From positions 108,283 to 172,282 of the forward strand of contig MEUZ01000007.1 in NCBI GenBank assembly GCA_001772615.1: a stretch of 64,000 bases of DNA, given 5' to 3'. The notes under the pieces are model-generated. The model did not search any database. It was given only the letters and a program-made list of their open reading frames with translations, and was not told the origin of the DNA. Position 1 is the first letter of the stretch, and every line of letters begins with the position of its first letter. This document shows, in pieces, positions 4,764-64,000 of this stretch. Made by a program: the position numbers and the translations under genes. This DNA is from a candidate division WWE3 bacterium RIFCSPHIGHO2_01_FULL_40_23 (GTDB lineage Bacteria; Patescibacteriota; WWE3; UBA101185; 2-01-FULL-41-18).

Positions 4764-5300
4764 AAACTTGACGGCCATTTACAATTAAGGTATAAATTAA
4801 AGCAATGAAAGAAGCGGCAATTTTCCTGTTACAACGACATATTTCGTATTGGCACAGACACAAACAGCTTGGTGTTTGACTCCGGGTTTATTAACCCAAT
4901 AATGTAAGCTCGGAGCTAAATCCCGAGCTTTTTTGTTTTTCTCTAAAAAAGTTGGGGCTTGGTTAAAAAGACAAATTTTGTTTGCCTTTTAAACCCCGTC
5001 CTAACCGCTTTGCAAAACCGAATTTAGTTTTGTGAGGACATGACGTGGAGAAAGGATCGGACTTAGCCATGACGTACCCGAGCTACCGCCCGGCCTACCC
5101 GCCCCCGGCTCGCCCCGCTGATGATTACGATCATCCGCCCCAGGCGCGCACCGCGGACGATTGGCCGCCTCCCGCTCGCCCTAGCTAAACCGGCACGGGA
5201 GTAAGACATTGGACGGTAAGGAGAGTAGTTTGAAAGAAGCAGCTTCCTTACCGTCCAAGTTCATTTTACCATTAGCGTATACATCAATAAGCAGGCTCAC

Positions 5301-5439
5301 GATTCCGGGATTTAGATCCCCGCTTTCGCGGGGATGACATCTGTAATACGGAATGACAACCCCCCCACTTGTCATTCCGTGCCTGACACGGAATCTCTCT
5401 AGGTTGTCGTTGAGATTCCGCATCAAGTGCGGGATGACA
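5301..5439. repeat. Family-1 nested palindromic repeat cluster (3-4 hairpin units)
   Basis: Contains AGATCCCCGCTTTCGCGGGGATGACA, GTCATTCCGTGCCTGACACGGAATC and GATTCCGCATCAAGTGCGGGATGACA. Confidence 0.7.
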
Positions 5440-40587: not shown

Positions 40588-40725
40588 CTTAGTGAGAGTT
40601 TATTGGAACTACCAATCCTGGTGTATTGTACAACGCAGCTTTTTGTTTTGTCAATATTTCTTTGGTGGACCCTAGGGGAATTGCACCCCTGGGCTTTGGA
40701 TTGGTAGTTCCAAACCCACACTAAG
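40588..40725. repeat. Long inverted repeat in the rplJ-rplL spacer (28-31 bp arms enclosing an internal GC hairpin)
   Basis: Arm 1 CTTAGTGAGAGTTTATTGGAACTACCAATCC. Arm 2 GGATTGGTAGTTCCAAACCCACACTAAG. Internal hairpin CCCTAGGGGAATTGCACCCCTGGG. Confidence 0.7.
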
Positions 40726-40800
40726 TAGGGCCCACCAGTAATCTATATAACACAAGTTTAACTATACTACAATATATATTGTATAAAGGGGGTGTTAAAA

Positions 40801-43664: not shown

Positions 43665-43773
43665 AATGGCAGAAAAGACAACAGGATATGCCTCTACGGG
43701 GTCACGTCCGCTAGTCTCTAATAATTAATTGTATAGCACAGAACTCGCGGCGTTCTTTCTCGCGCAATGCAAT

Positions 43774-43855
43774 GTCATTCTCGTGAGAGCGGAGATCAAC
43801 ATTGTCATTCCCGCGAAAGCGGGAATCTAGATCCTGGATCAAGTCCAGGATGACA
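43774..43855. repeat. Family-1 nested palindromic repeat
   Basis: GTCATTCTCGTGAGAGCGGAGATC, GTCATTCCCGCGAAAGCGGGAATC, AGATCCTGGATCAAGTCCAGGATGACA. Confidence 0.7.
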
Positions 43856-43906
43856 AAACATTGCGCTCCGAGTTCCCCTTAAGAGGCATATCCTGTTGTC
43901 TTTCAA
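43852..43906. repeat. ~55-nt repeat element B (GATGACAAAACATTGCGCTCCGAGTyCCCCTTAAGAGGCATATmCTGTTGTCTTTC); second copy at 56905-56961, inverted partner at 43674-43696
   Basis: Near-identical copies in two unrelated intergenic regions. The 3' arm is the reverse complement of GAAAAGACAACAGGATATGCCTCT at 43674. Confidence 0.65.
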
Positions 43907-53677: not shown

Positions 53678-54802
53678 TTAACCTTCCACGAGTTCAAGCT
53701 CGGAGGCGTATTGGTCCTCGCCTGCCTCCGCCAGATCTTTTTTAAGCCTAATCGTTGAAACGACTTTAAGCCCGTGCATCTCTTTTAAGGTGTCAAATAT
53801 AAAACTGTCATTAGTTACTATAAGACAAAGTTGAGCGAGGTTTTTATTAGCTGGAGCAAGCTGCAAAACCTTCTCAAAAAAAGCTTTATGCTCCGGTTTT
53901 ATATAAGCATGAAGAATAGAAAAAGGTCTTATGGTTTTGTATAAAGACATTCCGGCATACATTGTAAAGGCGTAGGGAACATTGGAATTTACAGCCGATT
54001 TATGTAAAGCATTAGCTATCTCTTTTAGCCCTGGAAGGCCACTCGTGTAATAGTAAAACCCAAGCCCTTCTTCAGGCAGTTCTTCTTTTGCAGCCGGCGG
54101 CTCTTTAACGACAGGTGTTTCTTTCGGTTCTTCCGAAATACTTTGAACTGTAGGTTTATCTGCCATTCTTTGAGTAGCCTGAAATTTAGGTGCTGTTTCC
54201 CTAAGCTTACCGAATTTTGAACTGAAATCGTACTGATCTGCAAGACTTGCGCCGCTAGCGGCTGTTTGAGGACTGGAAGGCGCCTCACTGGATGTTTCGG
54301 AAGGCGTTTCTGTCACTTCTGCGGGCTTTTCCGCTAATTTTTCGCGGGCTTCTTTAAATTTTGCTAGCCAATCAACAGTTTCCACTGGTTTTGAGGGTTC
54401 GGCGCTCTGCGATGACATTATATTTGAATGTGCAACTGGAGTGCTGACATCAGAAGAAGGTTTATCCAGCGTTGTTTCGGTCGTGTGCTTTTCTTGTGCG
54501 GCTCTGAACCTTGCAAGCCAATCAACTTCCGAAACAGGCTGTTTTATTGCATCTTCATCCTTTTTAAGAGCTCGCCTACCCGGACTGAATTGAACATCGG
54601 ACAATGATTGACGGGAAGGAACTCTCTGGGAGGGATAAAGAAAGTCAAGAATGTTTTGTTTAGAAAACCTATGCCTTCCCGTAGCGGTTTTGACGTCGGC
54701 TTTGATTTTGCCGTCTTCGAGATATCTGTACACGGACCTTAAACTGACCCCAAGGATCTCTGAAACTTCCGTGGAGGAATAAAGCCTGTCTTCTAATTCC
54801 AT
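53678..54802 (-). CDS. HTH (MerR/excisionase-type) domain protein with disordered linker and uncharacterised C-terminal domain
   Basis: N-terminal STEVSEILGVSLRSVYRYLEDGKI HTH; S/T/P/E-rich middle; 374 aa. Confidence 0.55.
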   Translation of the reverse strand: MELEDRLYSSTEVSEILGVSLRSVYRYLEDGKIKADVKTATGRHRFSKQNILDFLYPSQRVPSRQSLSDVQFSPGRRALKKDEDAIKQPVSEVDWLARFRAAQEKHTTETTLDKPSSDVSTPVAHSNIMSSQSAEPSKPVETVDWLAKFKEAREKLAEKPAEVTETPSETSSEAPSSPQTAASGASLADQYDFSSKFGKLRETAPKFQATQRMADKPTVQSISEEPKETPVVKEPPAAKEELPEEGLGFYYYTSGLPGLKEIANALHKSAVNSNVPYAFTMYAGMSLYKTIRPFSILHAYIKPEHKAFFEKVLQLAPANKNLAQLCLIVTNDSFIFDTLKEMHGLKVVSTIRLKKDLAEAGEDQYASELELVEG

Positions 54803-61621: not shown

Positions 61622-61698
61622 TGGTCGGGGTGCTCGGACTTGAACCGAGAACCTCTGCGTCCCGAACGCAGCGCGCTAGCCAATTGCGCCACACCCCG
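61622..61698 (-). tRNA. tRNA-Pro (anticodon CGG)
   Basis: Minus strand: CGGGGTG TG GCGC AATTGGCTA GCGC G CTGCG TTCGGGA CGCAG AGGTT CTCGG TTCAAGT CCGAG CACCCCG A CCA. Confidence 0.85.
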
Positions 61699-62379
61699 TC
61701 AAACGGACTGGCCTTGTGGTTCATCATTATCAACTCTGCATATGATAGGCTACCACAGTTTTTATTATATCCCACCCATCAAACATTCGAAAACGATAGG
61801 AACTATATAAGTGTACTATAACGACAAATTAATAACTTATAGATATCTGACTTGCTCTTCTTTAGCAGCATATGCATAGGTTAAGCAATGCATAGGCATT
61901 AGATATGCATAGGTTGCTGACCCAACAACCAAAGCCGATTTTAGTGTGTACTCTTGTACTCATTTTGCCCTATCAAGCGAAGGCACATCCACAAAACCAA
62001 ATATCTTATATAACATTTCTTATAAGCCTAATGGTAGAACGCTTAAAAAACAGCTAAAGTTCTGAATGACTCCTTAGGGAGTCCGGAAAACAGAACCCCG
62101 CTAGTGGCCCTGCCATAGTCTGTCAAGGGTACCACACAGAAATCAAAATGTACCTTCAAAGAAGGATTCTCGCAGCCATTGCCTTGTATCTACGAATTAA
62201 TACTTTATAGCAATGGCGAGAGGAAGGGGCTGCGTGGCTGATGAGTTAACAGTTCTGTAACGTACCGCAAGATCCCGTGCCTTCAAGAAGGTATATTTTG
62301 ATTTCTGCTTTAAACCTCGTACGTCTCACGCAGGATACCCTGTATAAGTGACCTATGTACAAGCTTTCAAAGGCTCTGG

Positions 62380-63339
62380 TTAAAGCCTTATGTAACTTAC
62401 CGACCTGCCTTTACCGCTAGTTATAAGAAGGCCTAAAGAGGCAAGTTTAGCAAGGTCTCTGGAAGCCGTTATCTGTGATATCCTAAACATCCCCCGCACC
62501 TTCCGGTTTGTAATTGAAACCCCCGGTTGTTCAAGATATTCCATAATCCCCTTCTGCCTGTCGTTTAAGGCAAAATAAGCCGAGTGTACACTCTTAATAA
62601 AACTTAATTGCCTGACGGTCTCAAATGATTTTTCAGCCTGCAAAAGGAAGGATGAAGCAAAGTATTCAAGCCAGTAGGTAAGACTTCCCGAAACGGCCGC
62701 ACTTTCATACGCCTGGCTGAAAGAAACAAGGTCTTTTTTAAAGTGCTCCTCAAGGCACAAGAAACCCCTAAAATCATACCCATGCTTATACAGAAACAAA
62801 AGTGCTAGAAGCCTTGAAATCCTTCCGTTCCCCTCCTCAAAGGGCTTTATCCTTAAAATTTGCGCCATGGCTACCCCCGCCTGCACCACCGGGTGGTCAT
62901 TTCCCTTTTCCAGATATGAGAGAAAATGCTCAACTGACTCTTGCGCCTCACGCGCGCGAAATTTCTTCAACTTTCGCCCTAAAGGGCTAAAAAGCAGTCT
63001 ATGAACTTCCTCTACATCTTCCCCCGTGACGGGATCAGTTGAAGCAAGCCATTCATAACCTATAAGGCTTAAAGCATTTCTGTAAGCTAGGACGTTATAG
63101 TCATCCCGCATTACTTTCCCCCTACCCGCGTTAGTTAAAATCTTGATCACATCTTGTCTCGTTATGGAGCTTTTGGTAAGGGCCAAAGACCAATAAATTC
63201 TGTTAACGGTAAAATCCCATTTTAACCTTAGTTCATTTTCCGGAGATATTGGGGTCAAAAGTATCTCCCTGCGGATCGTTTCTATCCGATCAAGAAGTTC
63301 TATAAGTTTTGACGAAACATTGTAGGATAAAAGAAGCAT
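62380..63339 (-). CDS. Fic-family protein with C-terminal winged HTH; catalytic His replaced by Lys
   Basis: Fic core motif reads KPFEEGNGRISR instead of HPFx[DE]GNGRxxR (codon AAG at the His position). C-terminal ITNRKVRGMFRISQITASRDLAKLASLGLL HTH. Confidence 0.7.
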   Translation of the reverse strand: MLLLSYNVSSKLIELLDRIETIRREILLTPISPENELRLKWDFTVNRIYWSLALTKSSITRQDVIKILTNAGRGKVMRDDYNVLAYRNALSLIGYEWLASTDPVTGEDVEEVHRLLFSPLGRKLKKFRAREAQESVEHFLSYLEKGNDHPVVQAGVAMAQILRIKPFEEGNGRISRLLALLFLYKHGYDFRGFLCLEEHFKKDLVSFSQAYESAAVSGSLTYWLEYFASSFLLQAEKSFETVRQLSFIKSVHSAYFALNDRQKGIMEYLEQPGVSITNRKVRGMFRISQITASRDLAKLASLGLLITSGKGRSVSYIRL

Positions 63340-63540
63340 CCCAATCCCAACTCAAAACTTATCATATACTAGTCATTAAAGCAACATTTCTTAAAAGCTT
63401 GTTATCAGAACTAAAAACACTCAACCGGATAAGATTAGGATAAGCTTTGCCTATGCATTGGTTAACTATTGACTAGGTAGGTTTAGTGTGATGTAATTAA
63501 GAAAAGATAAGTATTGCATAGGTAATTTGCAACACTGTAA

Positions 63541-64000
63541 ATGAAAAAGAACCTGCCCGACAAACCCCATAAAGATAAAAAACTTGTATCCATAGGCGAA
63601 GCTGTGGATATTTTAGGTGTTTCCATTGACACTTTAAGAAGATGGGACAAAAACGGTACTCTAAAGTCAGTAAGACCCGATGGCAAAAACAGATTCTTCC
63701 CGCTTGAAGACATAGAAAACCTCAAATTTTCAAAACCTCTCTCCATCGGTGAAGCCTCAAAACAGCTTGATCTTTCAACATCAACGTTAAGAAGGCTTGA
63801 AGAAAAAGGTTTTATAGAACCTATAAGAAACAAAGCCGGGGAAAGATTGTACACAAAAGACTCTCTTGATAGATTCCTCCACTCCGAATATTACCTAAGA
63901 CAGAAACAAGTTGAGGAAAAAATACTTGAACCTCTTAAAAAACCCGAAGAAGTTACCGAAACTTCGTCCGTTACGGGGCCGAAAATAAACCCGAAGACTA
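63541..64000 (+). CDS. Tandem MerR/excisionase-type HTH protein (partial, runs off window end)
   Basis: From ATG 63541: MKKNLPDKPHKDKKLVSIGEAVDILGVSIDTLRRWDKNGTLK...LSIGEASKQLDLSTSTLRRLEEKGFIEP gives two HTH_17/MerR-like repeats. Open to the end of the window. Confidence 0.6.
   Translation, partial: MKKNLPDKPHKDKKLVSIGEAVDILGVSIDTLRRWDKNGTLKSVRPDGKNRFFPLEDIENLKFSKPLSIGEASKQLDLSTSTLRRLEEKGFIEPIRNKAGERLYTKDSLDRFLHSEYYLRQKQVEEKILEPLKKPEEVTETSSVTGPKINPKT

Follow-up and report, generated by a model that had tools for sequence, protein, structure and literature searches.

A Fic-fold protein family without the catalytic histidine and a divergent tandem-MerR protein, probably with separate operator sets, at a chromosomal locus of the Microgenomates

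In the genome of candidate division WWE3 bacterium RIFCSPHIGHO2_01_FULL_40_23, a gene for a Fic-fold protein lies between a tRNA-Pro gene and a gene encoding two MerR-type helix-turn-helix (HTH) domains, with copies of a short repeat, TGCATAGG, on both sides of it. We asked what holds these elements together, employing a 64,000-nucleotide stretch of contig MEUZ01000007.1 (positions 108,283 to 172,282; hereafter the window) that ends within the locus. A first-pass annotation of the same DNA had read the arrangement as a small integrated accessory module. The final 2.4 kb of the window contains, in this order, tRNA-Pro, a 680-nt gap with no credible open reading frame (ORF), the Fic ORF, a 200-bp intergenic region and the MerR-like ORF. 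Our analysis indicated that the locus is probably a pair of divergent genes for DNA-binding proteins, each with its own operator set, in an ordinary chromosomal context of the Microgenomates, a group of the candidate phyla radiation (CPR). The unusual Fic motif and the repeats are both genuine, yet neither marks a mobile element.

The window was compared with 80 fetched loci (L001-L080), taken from a genome scan that found the Fic gene in at least 154 species-level genomes of Microgenomates, with two contigs assembled from other samples (L081 and L082), and with further loci containing the tandem-MerR gene (L083, L085, L206, L207 and L208).

The Fic-fold gene (62380-63339, minus strand) encodes a protein of 319 amino acids. 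Pfam Fic matched this protein at 2.1e-11 (44.9 bits, cut-off 24; coding part 62791-63027, minus strand), and HTH_DeoR, a DeoR-like winged HTH (wHTH), matched residues 261-306 near its C-terminus (coding part 62383-62559, minus strand). The protein was modeled by AlphaFold with a pLDDT of 88 and a pTM of 0.85, and the top Foldseek matches of the model, all with a probability of 1.00, were two-domain proteins with the same combination of Fic and wHTH: CbFic2 (8CIL), Dde_2494 (4RGL), 7CB8, SoFic (3EQX/3ZCN) and 7XUX. A Fic core followed by a C-terminal wHTH is the architecture of SoFic-type proteins.

The Fic motif of this protein reads KPFEEGNGRISR. As noticed in the first pass, lysine (K165, codon AAG at 62845-62847) takes the place of the catalytic histidine in the motif of canonical Fic AMPylases (Pfam PF02661; HPFx[D/E]GN[G/K]R), and the remainder of the motif, PFEEGNGRISR, is intact. 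Because the independent assemblies L081 and L082 encode the same protein, the sole difference being a synonymous single-nucleotide polymorphism at 62688, the lysine codon is genuine and does not represent an assembly error. The auto-inhibitory motif [S/T]xxxE[G/N] is also absent from the protein (the position aligned to AIEGN of FICD reads ALTKS), and no small antitoxin gene adjoins the Fic gene.

The loss of the histidine is not peculiar to this genome. The canonical motif HPFx[D/E]GNGR was found in none of the 120 best homologues, which are 40-50% identical to the window protein and come from Woese-, Levy-, Gottesman-, Blackburn- and Chisholmbacteria and other Patescibacteria. An exhaustive profile search (E<=1e-30) delimited the family to 361 representatives at 50% clustering, and the 120 best homologues together with the 150 best representatives gave an alignment of 269 sequences. 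None of these possesses the complete canonical motif. At the catalytic column, serine (69 sequences), alanine (48), threonine (29), asparagine (16), arginine (13), glutamine (13) and lysine (11) all occur; histidine was seen in 2 sequences, both without the rest of the motif (HAFTKGNGR and HPFSKNNN), and GNGR itself has decayed in many members. The C-terminal recognition helix of the wHTH, SQITASRDL (S288-L296), is invariant at 95-99% across the family. Since the fold is retained, the histidine column is variable and the recognition helix is nearly invariant, the family appears to have abandoned the chemistry and to be under selection mainly on the DNA-binding domain.

On this alignment, Lys165 is best seen as one of many residues tolerated at the catalytic column rather than as a local mutation. 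The missing histidine predicts loss of canonical AMPylation; the same prediction had been made from the window alone and is upheld here. The Fic-fold protein would be a transcription factor whose dead nucleotide pocket may function in sensing or in dimerization.

The gene on the other side of the intergenic region (63541-64000, plus strand) is present in the window as a 5' part of 153 codons that runs off the window end. Pfam MerR matched two stretches of its product (2.7e-23; MerR/HTH_17 domains), giving an N-terminal MerR-type wHTH followed by a second one, and the first HTH passed the NCBIfam "excise" domain model TIGR01764 (42.5 bits versus a cut-off of 28.8). The two MerR/excisionase-type HTH domains reported earlier for this gene were thus recovered. 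The excisionase-like role proposed with them was not: an excisionase is a small single-domain protein encoded beside an integrase, whereas this protein possesses two HTHs, its close homologues are membrane-anchored proteins of 208-800+ amino acids, and no integrase was seen in the 14 kb to the left of the locus. Homologues P0121 (66% identical, 208 amino acids) and P0122 consist of two HTHs, a linker and a C-terminal transmembrane (TM) helix, and the homologue in locus L006 (Chisholmbacteria) extends to 800 amino acids with a TM helix and a Gly/Thr-rich ectodomain of about 600 amino acids.

Unlike classical MerR proteins, the tandem-MerR proteins have no C-terminal coiled-coil or effector-binding domain; the homologues show the second HTH, the linker and the TM helix instead, and the named NCBIfam MerR-type equivalogs all scored far below their cut-offs on the window protein. 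Two MerR HTHs in one chain recall the NCBIfam family "HspR, fused homodimer type". With a cytoplasmic HTH on a single TM helix and a variable outside domain, the homologues resemble ToxR/CadC-type regulators, although their DNA-binding fold is of the MerR/excisionase type and not of the OmpR type. Contigs L081 and L082 both end exactly at 63827, inside this gene, which hints at strain variation or a repeat beyond that point.

Five exact copies of TGCATAGG occur in the 64 kb, all within the 1.65 kb of 61873-63522, against 1.35 expected; five or more copies appeared in none of 100 shuffles. Three of them form a distal cluster (61867-61915, plus strand) of direct ATGCATAGG repeats at 61872-80, 61888-96 and 61905-13. 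These repeats had been described in the first-pass annotation with a spacing of 10-11 bp; they are indeed there, but their starts are 16 and 17 nt apart, with gaps of 7-8 nt. The inverted pair described on the other side of the Fic gene is likewise present, at 63450-63458 (minus strand) and 63514-63522 (plus strand, TTGCATAGG). The repeated unit is longer than 9 nt, a feature missed earlier: the middle box of the cluster is part of a full 19-nt box, GTTAAGCAATGCATAGGCA (61880-98), and 61880-61898 and 63448-63466 form an inverted repeat matching at 18 of 19 positions.

The intergenic region contains a 32-bp palindrome, TGCCTATGCATTG-GTTAAC-TATTGACTAGGTA (63448-63479), a TGCATAGG-type operator, the right half of which overlaps a -35-like TTGACT (63469-74) of the putative MerR-side promoter. 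The fifth box, GATAAGTATTGCATAGGTA (63506-63524, plus strand), lies between a -10-like TGTAAT (63492-97) and the MerR-like ATG, and ends 16 nt upstream of that codon. This layout around the MerR-like promoter suggests autoregulation.

To which of the neighboring genes the boxes belong is indicated by their distribution. Among the 80 Fic loci the 8-mer TGCATAGG is at background (10 copies in 642 kb), as it is in the 75 loci without a tandem-MerR gene taken by themselves. The extended 19-nt box, GTTAACCAATGCATAGGCA, recurs in the 80 loci only where the tandem-MerR gene does (L006, L014, L034 and L048), usually forming the 32-bp palindrome around GTTAAC. In L014, L034, L083, L206 and L207, an equivalent palindrome directly precedes the start codon of the tandem-MerR gene; in L206 and L207 the palindrome ends 4-5 nt ahead of the ATG, and in L083 it is accompanied by extra boxes, with GATAAGGTTTGCATAG at the MerR start. 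L208 has seven boxes in 700 bp. In L085, where the MerR gene follows a 23S-5S rRNA operon and no Fic gene is found within 6 kb, three direct repeats, ATGCATAGG-tc-ATGCATAAG-ct-ATGCATATA, and another TTGCATAGG precede the gene.

Boxes were present in all 10 genomes with a tandem-MerR gene, 4 of which have no Fic gene in the fetched DNA. In the nine other than the window, 15 TGC[AC]TAGG cores were counted in 6.4 kb upstream of the gene versus 4 in 61.4 kb elsewhere (Poisson P ~1e-18). Since the boxes track the tandem-MerR gene even where the Fic gene is missing, they probably belong to the tandem-MerR protein as its cis-element, and to neither Fic nor the tRNA. The earlier term "iterons" is therefore best replaced with operator sites, one of the two roles first offered for them; the other, arm-type sites, found no support. 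The boxes would be recognition sites of a membrane-tethered tandem-MerR protein, overlapping and flanking its own promoter, with a further three-box cluster 1.6 kb away.

Unusually long non-coding stretches (1-1.75 kb) were also seen beside the tandem-MerR gene or the boxes in L085 (4244-6000), L208 (590-1584) and L006 (4945-6250). These stretches share nothing but the boxes, and when the gap in the window was aligned with those of L006 and L085, the boxes were again the sole shared sequence.

The same boxes could have another function, as membrane-anchoring or centromere-like sites for the tandem-HTH protein in the manner of RacA, or as replication or partition iterons. RacA has multiple repeated DNA sites, as the TGCATAGG boxes are, and in both the window and L208 multiple boxes in both orientations are spread over 0.7-1.6 kb; the homologues possess a TM anchor, and weak similarities to the HTHs of RacA and RepA were detected. 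These RacA and RepA matches fall far below their cut-offs, however, no partition ATPase or replication gene lies nearby, and the boxes of L206, L207 and L014 amount to a single palindrome at the gene's own start, the classic autoregulatory position. We consider the anchoring or iteron function unlikely.

The 19-nt inverted repeats at 61880-98 and 63448-66 were also considered as ends of an invertible or mobile segment. This candidate was rejected: they are two copies of the MerR-type box with no recombinase near, relatives without the repeats keep the same layout of Fic and operators, and L081 and L082 show the same orientation.

The Fic gene has candidate operators of a different kind, which had escaped the first pass. 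Blastn of the intergenic region against the 80 loci brought out GATAAGATTAGGATAAG (63428-63444, plus strand), located 89-105 bp upstream of the Fic ATG and the sole good match in the 64-kb window. The operator is made of two tandem 11-bp units, TGATAAGATTA twice, which in this distal copy are inverted relative to the Fic gene. Counted with up to 3 mismatches, it gave 135 sites in 71 of the 80 loci, all within 300 bp upstream of Fic. Outside these upstream stretches, 5 sites were found in about 618 kb, the same as in the reversed-sequence control.

A sigma-70 consensus scan of the intergenic region found no promoter, and promoters were placed by comparison across loci on the Fic side and by reading of the sequence on the MerR side. 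A layout of TTGACA-N4-GATAAGATTATGATAAG is kept in 57 related loci, in which the proximal operator occupies the 17-nt spacer and provides the -10 element (TAAGAT or TAAATT). By this geometry, the putative Fic promoter of the window lies at 63356-63384 (minus strand), with TTGCTT (63379-84) as the -35 and TAAGTT (63356-61) as the -10. The proximal operator is degenerate here: TTGCTT-taat-GACTAGTATATGATAAG (63358-63384) contains an operator remnant, GACTAGTATATGATAAG (63358-63374, minus strand), with 4 mismatches, whereas the distal site is perfect.

In the relatives, the Fic ATG typically lies 25 nt past the motif start, and the -10 ends about 7 nt ahead of the ATG in most of the 80 loci; the Fic mRNA is therefore probably leaderless or nearly so. 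The Fic leader in the window is about 10 nt long and contains GGGA. About 70 bp further upstream, the relatives carry the inverted second copy of the operator, which has no -35 (TTGACA) of its own and is followed, after 12-30 nt, by cCTTGACAa directed at the divergent gene. A further conserved block, GAGGCTAA, was observed between the two Fic operators of many loci, about 12-20 nt from the distal one.

The products of the divergent genes indicate what binds these sites. The divergent neighbor of Fic codes for a large envelope-type protein (600-1260 amino acids) in about 72 of the 80 loci, and four classes can be told apart: proteins with a signal peptide, CTVGxxCxIGEFLYDD and SH3; proteins with a MerR-type HTH and a long C-terminal region (in that of L049, an LVIVD propeller); ATGINxxINFQGK proteins; and proteins with HTH_17 and dCache. 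The window belongs to a small sub-group whose divergent partner starts with two MerR HTHs. Because the operator also accompanies Fic genes whose divergent partner has no HTH (classes A and C), its binder should be common to all loci, and is most simply the Fic-wHTH protein.

Fic-wHTH would bind the tandem units in the spacer and -10 of its own promoter and thereby repress itself; binding to the inverted copy, which immediately precedes the divergent gene's -35, would offer possible control of the neighbor. Specific repeated sites in its own promoter, as known for the Fic-HTH protein CccR (see below), are present in the window at 63428-63444 and 63358-63374.

Alternatively, the GATAAG motif of these sites might be a lineage-specific promoter element for RNA polymerase and a sigma factor, without any relation to Fic-wHTH. 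The proximal copy does fall on the spacer and -10 in a promoter of sigma-70-like type. However, the other ~8 genes of each of the 80 loci lack the motif, the 5 stray sites in 618 kb being at the level of the control, and a -35 is missing at the corresponding distance from the distal inverted copy. To our knowledge, promoter spacers are not normally 90% conserved across phyla. We regard a mere promoter element as quite unlikely, and binding by Fic-wHTH remains our preferred explanation for the motif.

The Fic-wHTH protein could still be an enzyme, acting via Lys165 or another residue in a non-canonical transfer, or could even be a SoFic-like abortive-infection toxin. The intact PFEEGNGRISR is consistent with such an activity, the fold is that of SoFic and CbFic2, and the PADLOC SoFic model matched the window protein at 1.4e-29 in a library without a curated cut-off. 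In contrast, the NCBIfam SoFic equivalog NF046030 scored 30.2 bits against a cut-off of 550. The hypervariable histidine column, the decay of GNGR in many members and the absent inhibitory motif all speak against catalysis, and the gene is syntenic and widespread, not patchy like a defense gene. Defense by SoFic is reported to require AMPylation (PMC12249575). An enzymatic role is thus very doubtful. A Fic/MerR toxin-antitoxin pair of the FicTA kind, in which an active Fic toxin shares a transcript with a small antitoxin carrying the inhibitory glutamate, was rejected as well, the motif being dead and the neighbor divergent and, in its homologues, membrane-anchored.

Comparison with characterized proteins places the family more precisely. 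Class II SoFic (SO_4266, 3EQX/3ZCN) and Coxiella CbFic2 (8CIL), the top structural and PADLOC matches, share the Fic core and C-terminal wHTH, but they differ from the window protein in having HPFxxGNGR and the inhibitory TxxxEG helix and in being active as AMPylases and deAMPylases. DNA binding by CbFic2 shows no sequence specificity and stimulates its catalysis (PMC10628234); the family described here, by contrast, has a dead motif, and its genes come with a specific conserved operator.

A characterized precedent is CccR of Yersinia pseudotuberculosis, in which a Fic domain is joined to a C-terminal HTH and the dimer represses its own gene by binding spaced palindromes in its promoter (PMC9755527). 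The window family shares the two-domain architecture and the predicted sites in its own promoter. CccR, however, has kept the catalytic histidine (H192A abolishes toxicity), AMPylates FtsZ and is a secreted effector of the type VI secretion system (PMC9755527), whereas the window family has neither the histidine nor the inhibitory motif, possesses another operator and lies in a housekeeping-like chromosomal context of the CPR. Among the fold matches, 7XUX, a FIC-domain structure released in the same month as the CccR paper, is possibly CccR.

FIC domains with degenerate motifs are known to persist elsewhere, in Bartonella Bep effectors (PMC8401265) and in Campylobacter fetus Fic proteins (PMC5651007). 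These are secreted effectors or toxin-antitoxin components of pathogens and are not known to be fused to an invariant wHTH, whereas the family in question is conserved lineage-wide. Relative to CccR, SoFic, CbFic2 and the degenerate Bep FIC domains, the catalysis-free family is a new form of Fic-HTH protein, and a text search of a paper library found no paper treating Fic proteins together with CPR/Patescibacteria.

We then considered integration at the tRNA gene. ARAGORN and Rfam (65 bits) confirmed the tRNA-Pro previously placed at 61622-61698 (minus strand, anticodon CGG); on the locus, Rfam gave the tRNA only, both at the gathering threshold and at E<=1, and it was also the sole match of the locus in phage and plasmid collections. 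Among the 80 relatives, tRNA-Pro lies beside Fic in none, and a convergent tRNA-Ala takes its place in about 10. Att-type repeats of the tRNA-Pro end, suggested earlier as a sign of integration, were searched for throughout the 64 kb; the longest exact match was 11 nt and the longest with one mismatch 15 nt, which is chance level. No integrase was found among the ORFs of 50-61.6 kb, nor a recombinase in the 14 kb left of the locus, which encodes MreB, a sortase, glycogen synthase, WecG, an MFS transporter and DUF3175. GC content (0.35-0.46) shows no break from the surroundings. Contig L082 matches the window between 63827 and the tRNA-Pro CCA end (61622; L082 2207-2225), past which it diverges completely, on the DUF3175/MFS side; if anything, variability at tRNA-Pro would lie on the side away from Fic.

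If the locus were a small accessory module integrated at tRNA-Pro, the repeats would be arm-type or att-associated sites, the tandem HTH protein an excisionase and Fic the cargo. This reading can draw on the adjoining tRNA gene, the match to the "excise" domain model, the 1.55 kb enclosed by 19-nt inverted repeats, the divergence of L082 at the tRNA 3' end and a right flank that lies outside the stretch past 64000. Yet it is largely refuted: the window has no att repeat matching the tRNA, the 14 kb on the left contain no integrase, composition does not shift, the L082 junction faces away from Fic and both other samples show the same orientation, the HTH homologues are membrane proteins of 208-800+ amino acids, the boxes accompany the MerR gene even beside an rRNA operon, and Fic and its divergent partner are conserved in 80 related genomes without tRNA-Pro nearby. 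Synteny of the gene pair in 80 related genomes, together with ordinary composition, is not the patchy, atypical pattern of an island. The first-pass annotation had itself named a Fic gene with the same His-to-Lys change, conserved in relatives without flanking repeats, as the finding that would speak against the module. The relatives do show a His-less Fic gene that is conserved and syntenic, and the TGCATAGG repeats appear only with the tandem-MerR gene. The tRNA-Pro is a bystander outside the conserved module.

Two divergent genes for DNA-binding proteins with separate operators thus account best for the locus. Motif loss throughout the family, conserved synteny, co-occurrence of motifs with genes and promoter geometry were obtained directly. 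Which protein reads which motif, and in which direction it regulates, we infer from sequence comparison.

Several points weigh against this explanation. The pairing of motif with protein is deduced from co-occurrence, and a metagenome scan for paired ATGCATAGG boxes gave at least 120 loci, and among the 120 listed no relative of tandem-MerR or Fic is encoded, so that these are chance or unrelated matches; the box pair alone is therefore not diagnostic. The TM anchor is attributed to the window protein from homologues 52-66% identical to it, as its own ORF is cut at residue 153 (a truncation overlooked in the first pass), and our view of the locus stops at position 64000, inside this ORF. Because the proximal Fic operator of the window has 4 mismatches in 17 positions, autorepression may be weak in this organism. 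The role of the three-box cluster and a 171-nt structured element beside it stay outside the explanation.

The 171-nt element, also new relative to the first pass, occupies 62137-62307, with the three-box cluster on one side and the Fic 3' end on the other, and was recognized as an inverted repeat that folds into a Y: a 21-bp closing stem, extended by 5 bp, encloses two inner hairpins. Its strand is uncertain, the plus strand being weakly favored (folding z -6.0 versus -5.05 for the minus strand, the plus fold being 9 kcal/mol more stable than its mirror). At both ends, a small CCTTC/GAAGG hairpin is followed on the outgoing strand by a T-rich run. The element is identical in L081 and L082. 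It has no Rfam match and no second copy in the window or in the 80 related loci (blastn, nhmmer); no long inverted repeats like it were found in the downstream gaps of the relatives, nor any match in viral contigs, phages or plasmids. Folding showed no notable structure in the sequence separating the boxes of L208 and L006 (z -0.5 to -2.4). Convergent transcripts could share the element as a 3' end; it could also be the gene for a small RNA, lying downstream of the three-box cluster, or a DNA element resembling a miniature inverted-repeat transposable element.

Other intergenic elements with long stems occur elsewhere in the window, at 43674-43903 (22-bp stem), 40603-40713 (16 bp) and 4906-5325 (20 bp). 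Their stems are perfect or nearly so, the first folds at about -105 kcal/mol, none belongs to an Rfam family, and their sequences are unrelated; the genome seems to carry several long-stem elements of unrelated sequence. Overlapping the second is a sub-threshold tRNA-like match (40666-40733, minus strand; 20 bits versus a gathering threshold of 29) that ends ...GGGUCCACCA and may represent a fragment of a tRNA or an interrupted one. The ORF at 53678-54802 (minus strand) combines an N-terminal HTH_17/MerR-type HTH with about 320 amino acids that match no Pfam family, and may follow the same design of an HTH plus a large C-terminal part as the divergent partners. Many records of the relatives (L002, L003, L005 and others) are titled "uncultured Gammaproteobacteria bacterium" though their genes are Microgenomates-like, probably reflecting mislabeling of metagenome-assembled genomes in public databases.

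As a Fic pseudoenzyme fused to a DNA-binding domain, the family extends the single characterized Fic-HTH autorepressor, CccR, to a catalysis-free form. Pipelines that annotate defense systems or Fic proteins are likely to assign its members wrongly to SoFic toxins or AMPylases. Hardly anything is known of regulation in CPR/Patescibacteria, and here one gene family comes with a sharp operator, a promoter geometry and a partner gene. Fic-wHTH, its operator and its partner span at least 5 candidate phyla and provide a testable regulator-operator pair in mostly unculturable organisms.

A bolder proposal, which we put forward tentatively as possible but not probable, is that the His-less Fic-wHTH is a lineage-wide regulator of the Microgenomates, that its disabled nucleotide pocket is a ligand sensor, and that it controls the giant surface or sensor protein encoded divergently from it, that is, the envelope proteins (600-1260 amino acids) with SH3, LVIVD, Cache or HTH domains. 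In the sub-lineage of the organism studied here, the partner, a membrane-tethered double-HTH protein, would couple the membrane directly to DNA at the TGCATAGG boxes, and the 171-nt structured RNA would be a target of that partner. If this is true, Fic-wHTH would be a switch for the cell-surface or host-contact apparatus of epibiont-like bacteria.

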